From NCBI GenBank assembly GCA_017409215.1, contig JAFQTD010000036.1:14038-78037 (forward strand): a stretch of 64,000 nucleotides of DNA, given 5' to 3'. This document shows, piece after piece, positions 1 through 6,212 of the stretch. How positions within the stretch are numbered: the stretch's first letter is position 1; the number at the start of each line of letters is the position of its first letter. Source of the stretch: Alphaproteobacteria bacterium. Its GTDB lineage: Bacteria; Pseudomonadota; Alphaproteobacteria; Rs-D84. Position numbers and translations under genes: made by a program. The notes beneath the pieces are model-generated. The model made no database searches. It was not told the origin of the DNA and saw only the letters and a program-made list of their open reading frames with translations.

Positions 1-215
1 ACTAAATAATCAACAGATACACCTTCATAAGAACCGCGCATTTCCATCAATATTTTTGTGTTTTCCGCGATTTGGCGCAATTCTGAATCTGCAATGGTGC
101 GCGTCTGATTATCGCGAATGGTATTAAAGACCCCCAGTGCAGCGATTGTCATAAAACCACTGATGGCCAAAACACCTAAGATTTCAATCAAAGACCGTCC
201 TGATTCTTCTCTCAT
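1..215 (-). CDS. type IV pilin / pseudopilin-like protein, N-terminal part (gene continues past window start)
   Basis: Minus-strand ATG at 215-213, 9 nt after a GGGGGTGA RBS and 2 nt after the dnaX stop. Translation MREESGRSLIEILGVLAISGFMTIAALGVFNTIRDNQ... has a short polar leader ending in Gly, then a hydrophobic helix with Glu at +5 (prepilin peptidase motif). No stop codon before position 1. Absent from the ORF track because it is partial. Confidence 0.55.
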   Translation of the reverse strand, partial: MREESGRSLIEILGVLAISGFMTIAALGVFNTIRDNQTRTIADSELRQIAENTKILMEMRGSYEGVSVDYL

Positions 216-217
216 TT

Positions 218-1777
218 TTATTTCACCCCCACTATTTCTGCATCCGCGAACAGGTCCATTGCGCTTGCGACCAACGGGTCTGCGACCAGTTCTTCTTGTT
301 TTTGTTCTGACATTGTGTGCGTATGTACAGATTCCATTACGCGTTCTAATGCCCACTGGCGACCGGTTTTATCAAACAGCCACGATGACAGTTTATGTGT
401 AAAATCTGCATCACCCTTGCGGTCAAAGAATCTGATTTTACCATCAGAAAACTCTGCGATTTCTATATTAGAACTATAGTAAGAGTACAACAAAATCTCT
501 TTTGCGGATTGCAGTGCTTGCGCCAACTGAGCCGCATCAGATATCGTCAATTTTTCGGATGTTGCACTGGGTTGTGTTTGTTGTGCCATACGGTCTGCCA
601 AAATATTTTTCACATCGCGTACCCGCTTTTCTGATTCTTGCTGTTTAAGGATTTCTGGCACAGACGGCATATCTGCAATATGCATCATTCGTATTATCAG
701 CATATCAAAGCATTGTTTCTGATTGCCTGCAGCCTGCATTTCTGGTACTGCAGCCACCATAACCTGCCATATTCTGGACAAAGTGTTTAGTGAAGTTTTT
801 GTACAAATATCCTTTATTTGTTCGCGTTGTTCAGCAGTGTATGGTGCGTTTGATGCATCCCCTGCATGCAGGGCAGGGTGCATACGCGTTGCCCAATGTG
901 TCCATTCCATCATATCGATTAACAGCATTGACAGGTCTGCGCCATTGTTATATATAGAATCAACTGTGTTCAGTGCAGCTGCCGTATCACCAGACAACAG
1001 TGTCTTCATAAGGTCCATAACCACACCGCGGTCAGCACGTTTCAACATATCCAAAACGGCTTTTTCATCGACCTTGCCACCGGTTTGTGCGATTGCCTGG
1101 TCCAGCAAGGACAGTCCGTCGCGCACAGACCCGTCTGCGGCAGATGCCAATAATTCGTTTGCGCCATCTGACAGTTCAACATTTTCCTGCTGTGCAATCC
1201 ATGCAAAGTGCCGTTTTAGTGTTTCGACAGGGACACGCACCAAATCAAATCGTTGGCATCTGGACAAGATTGTCACAGGCACTTTCCGAATTTCTGTTGT
1301 TGCCAGAATGAATATAACGTGTGCAGGCGGTTCTTCCAGTGTTTTCAGCAGTGCATTAAAAGCCGACACAGACAGCATATGCACTTCGTCAATAATATAT
1401 ACACGATATCTGCCATTTGTTGGTCTGTATTGTGCGCCATCCAGTATATCGCGCATATTATCGACACCTGTATGTGATGCGGCATCGATTTCCATAACGT
1501 CGATATGTTGTCCTGCGGCGATTGCGCGACAATTTTCGCATGTTCCACATGGTGTTGCTGTTGCCCCATCGGCAGACAGGCAGTTTAATGCCTTGGCCAA
1601 GATACGTGCAGTACTTGTCTTTCCGGTTCCGCGAATGCCTGTGAAAATATAGGCATGTGCAATACGTCCTGTTTTGATTGCTGTGGTCAGTGTTTTTACC
1701 AAAACATCCTGTCCGATAAGGGATGCAAAATCCTGACTGCGATATTTACGTGCTAATACAGTATAATTACCATTCAT
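218..1777 (-). CDS. dnaX: DNA polymerase III subunit gamma/tau
   Basis: 519 aa. AAA+ Walker A GIRGTGKTSTARILAKALNC, a clamp-loader zinc module CxxC, and length and architecture typical of DnaX. Confidence 0.95.
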   Translation of the reverse strand: MNGNYTVLARKYRSQDFASLIGQDVLVKTLTTAIKTGRIAHAYIFTGIRGTGKTSTARILAKALNCLSADGATATPCGTCENCRAIAAGQHIDVMEIDAASHTGVDNMRDILDGAQYRPTNGRYRVYIIDEVHMLSVSAFNALLKTLEEPPAHVIFILATTEIRKVPVTILSRCQRFDLVRVPVETLKRHFAWIAQQENVELSDGANELLASAADGSVRDGLSLLDQAIAQTGGKVDEKAVLDMLKRADRGVVMDLMKTLLSGDTAAALNTVDSIYNNGADLSMLLIDMMEWTHWATRMHPALHAGDASNAPYTAEQREQIKDICTKTSLNTLSRIWQVMVAAVPEMQAAGNQKQCFDMLIIRMMHIADMPSVPEILKQQESEKRVRDVKNILADRMAQQTQPSATSEKLTISDAAQLAQALQSAKEILLYSYYSSNIEIAEFSDGKIRFFDRKGDADFTHKLSSWLFDKTGRQWALERVMESVHTHTMSEQKQEELVADPLVASAMDLFADAEIVGVK

Positions 1778-3701: not shown

Positions 3702-4902
3702 AAACGAACATATTATAAATGAAAATCGTGGCGCAAGTATTATCGAAGTTGTACTTGCAATGGCTATCGTTGCGATGGCATCGCCGTTTGTGTATAATCA
3801 AATTAATCAAACAAACAAGACACTAAAAAATGTTGCGACCGCCAAAAAGATAATATCTGTACGTGATGCCGCACTAAACTTTGTTCGTGTTAATCAAGAC
3901 AAGTGGCCTGATGTTGCACAGATAAAATTGTCTGATGAAGAATTGGCGCTAATATCACCGACTGCTGTTGCAGGTTTTATCGATAAATATGCGCTTACTG
4001 GTATGACAACAACAGATATATATTTAGCATTTGATTTACAAGAATCGCAATTACAGACAAACAATGTTGCAAAGTATATTGGTTCAGACGCAGCGGTTGT
4101 TGGTGGTGATGGTGTTGCGTACAGTGATACATGGGCGGTGTCTGCGCCTGATTTTGCTGTTGGTGATTTGATATACAGGATTTCGCGTGATGTTGTTGGT
4201 GAAGATACAGAAAAATACTTGCATCGTGCGACATCAGGCGAAGATGAATTAAACAAGATGCAACGTGATTTAGATATGGCATCGCATAATATTTATAACA
4301 TTGCAAACCTGTCTGGTAAATCGATTGATGCCAGAAATGCCAGTGCGACCTTTGTTGAAACACCGTTGGTTTCTGCAAACGAAGTCTATTTTTCTGGTGG
4401 TGCAAACGTCGAAGGCCAAAATGTAGAACTGGGTAATGTGCGTGTTTCTGGTGATGTTTCAGGGTTCAGGAATATATATGCAAAAAATTTGAATGGTGAC
4501 AAATATACAACGCGTGGCCATATTATAACCGACCGCGCAGCAATATACGAAAAAGTAAACGTATCACGCGATTTGATACTAAAGTCTGACACAATCAGAA
4601 CAATTAGTGGCTTTACGGGTGTGTCTGTAAATTCTGTATTTACATCCTATGTATCGACCGAAGAAATAATGTTTTACGATAATTTTGGCTTAACTGTATC
4701 TGGCGAGTTGTTAATGTCCACCGTATCGCCAATAAAGATTGGTAATTGGTTGTTTCCATCAACTCGTCCGCCCGAATTTAGTGTGCTTAACCTATCGCGT
4801 GCATCAACACCATCGATGCCAAACAACAATGCATTTTCCGATATATTGCGTGATGGTTGGCAAAAGTCTATAACAATAACAAATGAATTTAACAAACAAT
4901 GA
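3688..4902 (+). CDS. large pseudopilin / minor pilin-like protein
   Basis: 404 aa. N-terminus MAVYKNEHIINENRG|ASIIEVVLAMAIVAMA has a leader ending in Gly, Glu at +5 and a hydrophobic helix. The start overlaps the upstream gene's end by 14 nt, suggesting an operon. Confidence 0.65.
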   Translation: MAVYKNEHIINENRGASIIEVVLAMAIVAMASPFVYNQINQTNKTLKNVATAKKIISVRDAALNFVRVNQDKWPDVAQIKLSDEELALISPTAVAGFIDKYALTGMTTTDIYLAFDLQESQLQTNNVAKYIGSDAAVVGGDGVAYSDTWAVSAPDFAVGDLIYRISRDVVGEDTEKYLHRATSGEDELNKMQRDLDMASHNIYNIANLSGKSIDARNASATFVETPLVSANEVYFSGGANVEGQNVELGNVRVSGDVSGFRNIYAKNLNGDKYTTRGHIITDRAAIYEKVNVSRDLILKSDTIRTISGFTGVSVNSVFTSYVSTEEIMFYDNFGLTVSGELLMSTVSPIKIGNWLFPSTRPPEFSVLNLSRASTPSMPNNNAFSDILRDGWQKSITITNEFNKQ

Positions 4903-6212
4903 TATGTAAAAGAAAAAAATTTTTATTACACAACAGTTCGCGTGGCAGTATGCTGGTTGAATTACTGTTAAGTGTTGCGCTGTGCGCGGTTATAGTTCCA
5001 TTTATCTTTAAATATCAACAAAGTTCTGTTCAGCGTGCGCAAAATTTAAAACTAAGAAATCAAATGACGGAAATTCAAGTTGCGCTGGAACGTTATATCA
5101 TAGAAAACAGGGCGCAACTATTAAACACAATTGGGCGCAATATAACACGTGTAGAACTTAGTGATTTAAGTGAATTTGGTTTACCTGATGCGATTATTGA
5201 AAATCAAGATTTATTTCAACTGCGTGTATTAAAATCCCAAGATTCAACAGGCAGTGCGACATTACAAGGTGTAATTGTTCGTAAATCGGATGAATTAACC
5301 CCATTACGTACACGTGAAATTGTTAATATGTCTGGTGGGACGATGGGGTTTGTTGATGGAACGCATGCGTACGGAACATTTGGTGCCTGGCACGCAGATA
5401 TGGTTGATTTAGGAATAAATCTTGAAAACGGTCTTATTGAATCGACTGCGGTAAATCGTGATAATGCGCTGTATTTATGGCGTGTTCCATCTGACAATAT
5501 ATACGATGCCCAGATGATGTCGCCATTGAATCTTGGTGGGCACGATTTAAAGAACGCAAGTTTTGTAAATGCAAACTTTGTCGAATTTGCTGATTTATTG
5601 ACTTCAGAAAACATAAACACCAACAGTTTTATATTCAAAAACAGAACAACAATAGACAGCGAATACAAGTCAGACATAACAACTGTTTCTGGTACATTGT
5701 CTGCAGACGGAAAAAATATGGAAATAAACGGGTCTTTGTTATTGGACAATTTGGGCAAGTTTTCATCATTAAATGCTAATAATTTATGGGTGACTAATAT
5801 GACCTTGGGTGGCTTGTCTATTAACGACGAAGATTCGCTGGCATTATTGAAAATTAATCAATATCTGGATATGACATCTGGTCACATCAATGCAATGTTT
5901 GTGACGGTTGGCTTTTCTGGTTCGATGACCCCACGTTTGGTTGTATATGACAGGATTGAAGATTCAACAAATTCTGACTACTATTGGGATGCGTCTAACA
6001 GACGGGCTAACTTTATGGACGCCAGCTTTATAGAATTAAATCGTATGGCAGAATTAGCTATGCATTACGAAGGTGACAAAGCGACCGCATCTGGCCGAAT
6101 TTTTGGCGCGGTATCTGCGAACAAGAATGCAACAGTTTCGGATTTTATGAACGCAATCAATAAAATTCAAAAACAAGTACAGGAAAAATATCAGGATTTG
6201 ATTTCGCAATAA
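4899..6212 (+). CDS. large pseudopilin / minor pilin-like protein
   Basis: 437 aa. N-terminus ...[23 protein letters not shown] has a leader ending in Gly, Glu at +5 and a hydrophobic helix. It overlaps the upstream gene by 4 nt (ATGA). Confidence 0.65.
   Translation: [437 protein letters not shown]

Follow-up and report, generated by a model that had tools for sequence, protein, structure and literature searches.

In the type IVb thin pilus of IncI1, IncI2 and IncK plasmids (R64, R721, and TP114), PilV (Pfam PF04917) serves as a minor pilin and as the adhesin. Nearly all that is known of it comes from plasmids, where a shufflon varies the one pilV gene. Here we describe a different arrangement in a 64,000-nucleotide (nt) stretch of chromosome from Candidatus Enterousia, an alphaproteobacterium of the order Rs-D84 (assembly GCA_017409215.1, contig JAFQTD010000036.1, positions 14,038 to 78,037; hereafter, the window). 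Three consecutive genes, which we call A, B, and C, encode proteins that are by profile comparison remote homologues of PilV, and they are followed by a gene whose product resembles ZitP of Caulobacter crescentus. This arrangement, a conserved PilV triplet that lies on the chromosome, has no shufflon, and is linked to a ZitP-like gene, is new, and it belongs to an undescribed pilus system of reduced-genome gut Alphaproteobacteria.

The likeness to PilV extends over several features. Both have a prepilin signal with Gly at position -1 and Glu at +5, although one of the paralogs here (A) has Gln at +5. They are of similar length (414 to 458 amino acids [aa] for PilV and 404 to 451 aa here), they share a homologous N-terminal module of about 220 residues that includes the motif LYR...N.M...MGG..I.N, and their C-terminal part differs between variants. 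Both are also partnered with PilO, PilP, an ATPase, and a platform protein of the same type. In contrast, PilV is encoded by one gene with a shufflon, whereas the window holds three full-length genes in a fixed order, with no sfx-like repeats or recombinase. PilV is plasmid-borne, while the triplet is chromosomal and vertically conserved in one bacterial order. The pilV gene ends the pilL-V operon beside pilS, pilT, and pilU, but A-B-C is not adjacent to pilin, transglycosylase, or peptidase genes. Finally, the C termini are variable in PilV and conserved here, and the window proteins fall under the Pfam cut-off.

Large minor pilins are also found in other type IVb systems. CofB of CFA/III (colonization factor antigen III) from enterotoxigenic Escherichia coli (ETEC) and TcpB of the toxin-coregulated pilus (TCP) from Vibrio cholerae each make up a homotrimeric pilus tip and initiate assembly. 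Like A, B, and C, they are large (about 400 to 520 aa) and multi-domain, and the order predicted for the window proteins, in which beta-rich domains come after a pilin domain, is theirs as well. The accepted architecture is a tip of three subunits (PMC13533445 and PMC6048534), and the solved type IVb tips are homotrimers of a single large minor pilin (PMC13533445). We detected no sequence similarity to CofB or TcpB. Where those systems have a single minor pilin gene and a homotrimer, the window has three diverged paralogs, from which a heterotrimer may be formed.

Three different minor pilins are encoded together in two further systems, the GspK-GspI-GspJ tip and the PilK/PilX-type tips of type IVa pili. 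In these, as in the window, one of the three lacks Glu at +5, a property of apical minor pilins that is taken to place it at the apex (PMC13533445). However, these proteins are 100 to 330 aa long and come from three families, while all three window proteins are paralogs within a single large family and show no homology to the proteins of those systems past the N-terminal helix. As for the gene after C, its layout of zinc finger, membrane helix, and DUF3426 is that of ZitP, which is needed to build the type IVc (Tad) pilus of Caulobacter, binds PopZ, and recruits CpaM so as to promote assembly of the secretin, and whose periplasmic DUF3426 is required for Tad pilus display (PMC5182063). The Caulobacter protein is longer (311 aa, compared to 174 aa here), and the Pfam matches of the window protein lie under the cut-off.

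Enterousia and other Rs-D84 bacteria, whose genomes are smaller than 1 Mb, occur commonly in the gut of ruminants, birds, horses, and humans. Enterousia genomes span 0.75 to 1.0 Mb (about 0.9 Mb) and lack the tricarboxylic acid cycle, respiration, and standard transporters (PMC12306168). Type IV pili are reported in that gene-content study for another lineage but not for Rs-D84 (PMC12306168), and we found no further mention of them in Rs-D84 among the papers searched. A retained pilus with three large tip proteins would give these bacteria a concrete, testable mechanism for contact with a partner or host. In addition, two questions can be put to the fixed-order chromosomal triplet as to a natural experiment: do the large minor pilins of type IVb systems function as tips of three subunits, and how could a homotrimer turn into a heterotrimer?

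Homology of the A, B, and C proteins to PilV

The three genes lie on the forward strand. Gene A (2346 to 3701, +) encodes 451 aa, gene B (3688 to 4902, +) encodes 404 aa, and gene C (4899 to 6212, +) encodes 437 aa. The overlaps of 14 nt between A and B and of 4 nt between B and C (ATGA) bear out a sequence-only reading of this DNA, which had described three coupled genes at 2346 to 6212. Gene A begins with TTG, 8 nt from a Shine-Dalgarno sequence read from the DNA (GGGGGGA, 2331 to 2337, +). This start fits the 451-aa length of most homologues, and a distant ortholog has an ATG at the same position.

All three proteins open with a prepilin signal. With the cleavage site marked by a slash, the N termini read ..QQRG/NFLMQ in A, ..ENRG/ASIIE in B, and ..SSRG/SMLVE in C, following leaders of 6, 15, and 16 aa, respectively. 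The cleavage-site motif precedes about 20 hydrophobic residues with a Pro at +18. The leaders thus end in Arg-Gly, with Glu at +5 in B and C and Gln in A, just as the sequence-only reading had it. A six-frame scan of the window found this motif only in A, B, C, a small pilin gene cut by the start of the window, and one internal membrane helix of an AcrB protein. The full type IV pilin signal (Gly at -1, Glu at +5, and a hydrophobic helix) is present in B, C, and the small pilin, and A departs from it in its Gln at +5. The signal is strictly conserved across about 50 species-level loci: Gly at -1 goes with Glu at +5 in 53 of 53 loci for B, 55 of 55 for C, and 46 of 46 for the small pilin, and with Gln at +5 in 50 of 51 for A. 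Beyond the helix, Ser, Thr, Asn, and Gly make up 31 to 35% of the protein bodies, a richness that had also been noted from the sequence. In the family alignment of A, Q11 is invariant, as are four Cys within the last 50 residues.

To compare families, we aligned a profile of each with a PilV profile built from four proteins (two from IncK E. coli, one from Fukatsuia, and one from Pseudomonas pND6-2) using hhalign. Each family matched PilV: C with a probability of 97.1% (E = 6.8e-11), B with 94.5% (E = 8.2e-8), and A with 91.9% (E = 6.8e-7). The alignments span the first 180 to 225 residues, and each stops at a common motif, LYR..P....N.M...L.MGG..I.N, which in B reads YLHRATSGEDELNKMQRDLDMASHNIYN.

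Searches with C led to PilV by two other routes. A tblastn search of 72,556 plasmids returned annotated pilV genes (E = 3e-7, covering 86% of C), described as [quoted passage not shown] An hmmsearch of 1.84 billion representative proteins with the C profile recovered 221 proteins at an E-value of 1e-3 or less. Among these were proteins that are valid members of the Pfam PilV family Shufflon_N (PF04917; gathering score, 27.5 bits), with whole-library E-values of 1.8e-10 to 3.4e-6. One protein (P0393) matched the C profile at E = 1.7e-56 and Shufflon_N at 44 bits, and five others found with the C profile (P0459, P0468, P0479, P0493, and P0506) scored 90 to 250 bits against Shufflon_N. [quoted passage not shown]

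The three proteins are also related to each other. BLASTP aligned B with C at 22% identity (E = 4e-7) and A with C at 23% identity (E = 2e-6); by hhalign, C matched B with a probability of 96.2% (E = 2.1e-9) and A with 53% (E = 1.3e-4). In a collection of 5.8 billion proteins, we found 850 to 1,070 homologues per protein (889 for A and 1,070 for B), all of them annotated as "hypothetical protein" and derived from gut metagenomes and from metagenome-assembled genomes (MAGs) labelled "Alphaproteobacteria bacterium." When A, B, and C were scanned directly against Pfam and NCBIfam, no family reached the cut-off, and the N-terminal helix matched N_methyl, GspK, GspI, and ComGE weakly. Pfam scans of ten distant relatives of 465 to 1,236 aa gave no domains. 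Related single proteins, which reach 1,236 aa, have only the N-terminal PilV-like module in common.

The sequence-only reading had classed the three proteins as unusually large pseudopilins. Their size is normal because the PilV family spans 410 to 470 aa: IncK examples measure 419 to 445 aa, and PilV of plasmid TP114 measures 414 to 458 aa, of which 345 residues are constant and 69 to 113 are variable (PMC9045228). The class fares no better, as discussed below with type II secretion.

Structure prediction is consistent with a pilin domain in B. An AlphaFold2 model built from an alignment of 135 sequences of all three families had a predicted local distance difference test score (pLDDT) of 62.7, rising to 80 to 89 over residues 20 to 170. 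This part is predicted to consist of a 57-residue N-terminal helix (residues 16 to 72) and then a beta sheet whose strand pairs are separated by a helix, as in the layout of a pilin. A beta ladder of lower confidence follows at residues 205 to 290, in line with the earlier expectation of beta-rich bodies. Searches of PDB sequences with four profiles (A, B, C, and PilV) and one PilV sequence returned only N-terminal pilin helices or noise. The PilV family has no solved structure that is detectable by sequence.

Conservation of the triplet in Rs-D84

To survey the locus, we took one genome per GTDB species, which yielded 51 loci. Nearly all come from Candidatus Enterousia or from genomes labelled "Alphaproteobacteria bacterium" from the guts of ruminants, humans, and other animals, and two are MAGs labelled "Rickettsiales bacterium." In essentially all 51, the layout was the same, with genes for an OmpA-domain protein, the small pilin, DnaX, and a DUF4167-like protein on one side and A, B, C, the ZitP-like gene, a gene for a 152-aa signal-peptide protein, and an RluD-type gene on the other. 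In the two loci that diverge most, A through RluD is retained and the dnaX side is not.

Between the window and other Enterousia species, orthologs of the three proteins share about 55 to 82% identity, and each protein is evenly conserved over its full length. This even conservation, together with retention in genomes of only 0.75 to 1.0 Mb (PMC12306168), argues that the three genes are under selection. We found no repeated inverted sites beyond chance at positions 2200 to 8300 and no sfx-like repeats, so nothing there resembles a shufflon. No recombinase gene is present at the A-B-C locus, where the gene after C is the ZitP-like one.

The triplet also occurs, in the same order, in two distant low-GC genomes (locus L060, 374 to 4587, and locus L061, 7220 to 11470). 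In both, each gene best matches the corresponding A, B, or C family profile, and the third gene of L060 encodes a Pfam-valid Shufflon_N protein. These two triplets adjoin unrelated genes (encoding elongation factor P and RecO). Another copy of the alphaproteobacterial cluster (DUF4167, A-B-C, ZitP-like, and RluD; 37 to 44% identity) is found on a contig labelled "uncultured Muribaculaceae bacterium" (L051, CAZNTZ010000008.1). That label probably reflects a binning or labelling error in a public MAG.

Pilin and assembly genes in the window

A pilus assembly cluster of the R64 type lies 17 kb from A-B-C on the reverse strand (23624 to 28305, -), with its genes in the R64 order O-P-Q-R. It starts with pilO (27043 to 28305, -), which encodes a type IVb pilin accessory protein (Pfam PAP_PilO, PF06864; 34.1 bits, cut-off of 26.7), and continues with a pilP-family gene (26340 to 27053, -; NCBIfam TIGR03021 pilP_fam, 35.2 bits, cut-off of 34.65). 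The assembly ATPase gene (24696 to 26330, -) belongs to the R64 PilQ/GspE family (Pfam T2SSE, 5.5e-62), and its product is 30% identical to IncK PilQ (E = 1.5e-42). The last gene (23624 to 24694, -) encodes an inner-membrane platform protein of the R64 PilR/GspF family (Pfam T2SSF, 2.6e-24; IncK PilR, E = 7e-24). Four components of an R64-type machine, namely PilO, PilP, a PilQ ATPase, and a PilR platform, are therefore encoded in the window. In tblastn searches of the window and 55 related loci, IncK PilS, PilT, PilL, and PilM had no match.

Directly 3' of the platform gene is a gap of about 800 nt (22813 to 23623), at the place where R64-type operons hold the pilin gene. It contains a single open reading frame (ORF) of 124 aa on the opposite strand, with no family match.

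The small pilin gene stands at the edge of the window. Only its 5' part (1 to 215, -) is present, opening with MREESG before the cleavage site and continuing as RSLIEILGVLAISGF..., with Glu at +5. Its ATG (215 to 213) lies 2 nt beyond the dnaX stop codon (218 to 220) on the same strand, so that the partial pilin gene stands where it had first been placed. In relatives, the full-length protein has 152 aa and a C-terminal Cys pair, and its gene always comes directly after dnaX and before a gene for an OmpA-domain lipoprotein. It is likely the major pilin. The match to Pfam PilS_N is weak (17.1 bits, cut-off of 22); a PilS-type pilin is expected to have a long leader and about 180 to 200 aa.

The lipoprotein has 224 aa (5394 to 6068, -, in locus L001), and an equivalent follows the pilin gene in about 45 loci. 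The conserved dnaX-pilin-OmpA unit is an odd partnership for a replication gene.

A ZitP-like gene follows the triplet

The gene after C (6233 to 6757, +) encodes a 174-aa protein with an N-terminal zinc ribbon, one membrane helix, and a periplasmic DUF3426-like domain, and so has the three-part architecture of ZitP. The ribbon has the form CxxC-x19-CxxC, and its four Cys are invariant in orthologs. In the window protein, both Pfam matches are just below the cut-off (Zn_ribbon_4, 2.4e-6; DUF3426, 4.7e-4), while among 16 orthologs, Zn_ribbon_4 was found in all and DUF3426 in nine. The ZitP-like gene is linked to pilin genes in every genome examined. This constant linkage extends a connection known only from the Tad pilus of Caulobacter.

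After the ZitP-like stop codon, 1 nt separates it from the gene for the 152-aa signal-peptide protein (6759 to 7217, +), and the succession of a zinc-ribbon/DUF3426 gene and a secreted protein on one strand is as the sequence-only reading had reported. Pfam and NCBIfam scans of the signal-peptide protein gave no match, and it belongs to no known family. Its gene was found in every locus that reaches that far.

A proposed tip complex and how well it is supported

The prepilin signals and their conservation, the PilV homology, the paralogy, the synteny, and the presence of assembly genes are established. On these grounds, we consider A, B, and C to be three paralogous PilV-like minor pilins that probably form the sticky tip of a pilus, and we put the probability of this reading at roughly two in three. 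A role at the tip or as an adhesin had been raised as one option from the sequence, and we prefer it because the proteins are homologous to the PilV tip adhesin.

The pilus could be built as follows. A, B, and C would each start with a short cytoplasmic leader and insert their N-terminal helix into the inner membrane, and a prepilin peptidase encoded outside the window and the loci that we retrieved would cleave them after the conserved Gly. They would then be loaded first onto the machine of PilO, PilP, ATPase, and platform encoded 17 kb away, and so would end at the tip of a fiber made of the 152-aa pilin encoded beside dnaX. The ZitP-like protein, by analogy with its Caulobacter counterpart, may help to place or assemble the machine. 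Within each tip protein, the shared N-terminal portion of about 220 residues would be the pilin module, and the three differing C-terminal halves would carry the binding functions. This bacterium, whose genome is about 0.9 Mb and which has neither respiration nor standard transporters, would use the pilus to attach to a partner cell or host surface. Such attachment is its most likely purpose.

Because the genes overlap, A, B, and C would be made in equal amounts. Overlapping genes in an order that is fixed even in distant genomes suggest that the three proteins act jointly. Through Glu at +5, a pilin is docked to the subunit that lies above it. Given the overlaps, the fixed order, and the lack of Glu at +5 in A, we favor one tip complex with A above B and C over three alternative adhesins. 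By analogy with known tips, three paralogs joined in a heterotrimer would vary the homotrimeric type IVb design in a new way.

A bolder proposal is an obligate 1:1:1 heterotrimeric tip, derived by triplication from one PilV-like minor pilin of the sort that builds the homotrimeric tips of other type IVb pili, with A then fixed at the apex in Rs-D84 by loss of Glu at +5. It would be placed by the ZitP-like protein, acting as a polar organizer, and would be the main organ for attaching to a partner cell on which the bacterium depends. Taken together, this is speculative, and we think it doubtful that all of it holds. If true, such a tip would correspond, in hard-wired and conserved form, to the PilV adhesin, which a shufflon varies and which binds recipient bacteria.

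Several results weigh against a PilV-like tip. At the Shufflon_N cut-off, no window protein passes (B reaches 13.1 bits, and A and C do not match). Scanning every member of the B and C families against Pfam produced a single Shufflon_N match per family, below the threshold, and the best C ortholog (P0216) stays below the cut-off at 26.5 bits, a near-threshold match that was itself a lead toward PilV. Structural support is concentrated in the pilin domain of B. Its residues 200 to 404 have a pLDDT below 66, which leaves little support past that domain, and the model of C, from a 29-sequence alignment, has a pLDDT of 39. A Foldseek search of PDB with the B model returned nothing significant, the top match being the V. 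cholerae minor pilin TcpB (E = 0.21).

The composition of the machine adds to these doubts. Neither a prepilin peptidase nor a secretin was found in the 64-kb window or in about 1 Mb of related loci (55 loci) by tblastn with IncK PilU and PilN and by a regular expression for the A24 catalytic motif. Pfam scans of the tested unassigned ORFs of the window and inspection of its other ORFs of at least 180 aa likewise revealed none. The missing genes count against a pilus because an outer-membrane bacterium would need both. Moreover, the small pilin has a 6-aa leader and an Arg at +1, which are atypical for type IVb pilins.

Two points bear on the adhesive and apical parts of the proposal. In A, B, and C, conservation is as high in the C-terminal halves as in the N-terminal ones, unlike in diversifying adhesins or in the shuffled C termini of PilV. 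In addition, the first gene of the distant triplets in L060 and L061 encodes Glu at +5. The Gln of A is therefore specific to Rs-D84, and the argument for an apical A holds only within that order.

Alternative explanations

The alternative that survives best is a PilV-like pilus used chiefly for DNA uptake, which would bind and reel in DNA for import by ComEC, either as a source of nucleotides or for transformation. The window does contain a full-length ComEC/Rec2 gene (55598 to 57553, -; Pfam Competence, 8.6e-56, and DUF4131), kept in a transporter-poor genome of about 0.9 Mb (PMC12306168), and the evenly conserved C-terminal halves of A, B, and C would suit an invariant ligand such as DNA. 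However, known PilV proteins recognize the surface of the recipient cell (PMC9045228). The ComEC gene also lies 50 kb from A-B-C, and our analysis identified no retraction ATPase, ComEA, or DNA-binding motif. ComEC is common in bacteria that are not known to be competent, which counts further against uptake. We regard DNA uptake as an improbable main function.

Less probable again is a pilus that secretes the co-encoded 152-aa signal-peptide protein, in parallel to TcpF of the V. cholerae TCP and CofJ of the ETEC CFA/III. The gene for this protein belongs to the A-B-C unit in all loci. There is also a precedent: in the type IVb systems TCP and CFA/III, a protein encoded together with the pilus is exported by it and docks on the trimer of minor pilins (PMC6048534, PMC9565799, and PMC10120004). 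Yet the 152-aa protein resembles nothing in Pfam or NCBIfam, the ZitP-like gene intervenes between its gene and A-B-C, and the case is one of analogy alone. Secretion of this kind would be a surprise.

The pseudopilin class proposed from the sequence amounts to a type II secretion system, in which oversized GspH, GspI, GspJ, or GspK proteins would form the tip of a periplasmic pseudopilus that pushes proteins through a secretin. The class III signal is common to pseudopilins and to A, B, and C, one member (A) lacks Glu at +5 like GspK, and there are weak N-terminal matches to GspK, GspI, and XpsI models. Foldseek also matched the B model to a chain of the type II XcpGHIJK pseudopilus (probability of 0.77, target TM-score of 0.50). 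The Gsp matches, however, are limited to the helix and far below the cut-off (18.4 bits versus 130 for GspK and 13 versus 44 for GspI), and the bodies of A, B, and C match PilV rather than Gsp proteins. The assembly genes are of the R64 type, with PilO and PilP of type IVb pili in place of GspC, GspL, and GspM. No gsp genes are present in the window, and no GspD was found. A type II system is thus very unlikely, and the pseudopilin label is not supported.

A possibility already named in the sequence-only reading, namely that the N-terminal helix only resembles a prepilin signal and that A, B, and C are ordinary periplasmic proteins or membrane proteins with a single pass rather than pilins, is hardly credible: no peptidase was found nearby in the window or the retrieved loci and the bodies have no Pfam family at the cut-off, but the Gly at -1 and the residue at +5 are strictly conserved across about 50 species, the PilV profile homology runs over 180 to 225 residues and far past the helix, the pilin domain of B is modelled with confidence, and a small pilin and a pilus machine are encoded in the same window.

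Pseudopilins of the Tad type (TadE and TadF) were also considered and rejected, as there was no TadE match and the accessory genes are those for PilO and PilP.

Neighboring genes and further observations

The RluD-type pseudouridine synthase gene (7225 to 8184, +) is probably the last gene of the A-B-C transcription unit. Its ORF opens at 7189, and the ATG at 7225 agrees with relatives of 319 aa, in which PseudoU_synth_2 is found. The unit ends at a bidirectional terminator-like hairpin (8173 to 8202, both strands), a 13-bp palindrome with T runs on either strand.

On the other side of the triplet, dnaX (218 to 1777, -) provides context only. It encodes the tau/gamma subunit of DNA polymerase III (Pfam DNA_pol3_delta2, 1.3e-44; DNA_pol3_gamma3, 4.8e-31). 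Divergent from gene A is a gene for a small, highly charged protein with a sub-threshold DUF4167 match (1863 to 2189, -), which has its own terminator-like hairpin at 1855 to 1840. This gene is kept beside the A-B-C cluster in loci that extend that far, the most divergent ones included.

Two clear paralogs, each with a signal peptide, are encoded at 21787 to 22812 (-; 341 aa) and 57642 to 58727 (+; 361 aa). They have in common a Gly/Ala/Thr-rich stretch (AGINTAITxVGT...) and a conserved C terminus (KEKNLNT..NVLA...). The 3' end of each is overlapped by another gene, in one case encoding a 386-aa protein with GH108 and peptidoglycan-binding matches and in the other a 1,092-aa protein without a family. 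The pair at 21787 to 22812 sits just downstream of the pilus assembly cluster.

The window also contains a gene for a TraG/VirD4-type coupling protein of type IV secretion systems (32540 to 34798, -; T4SS-DNA_transf, 3.5e-51), with no other recognizable genes of such a system beside it in the window. A homologue of this coupling protein is encoded near the pilin-dnaX locus in some relatives (L003, L004, and L014).

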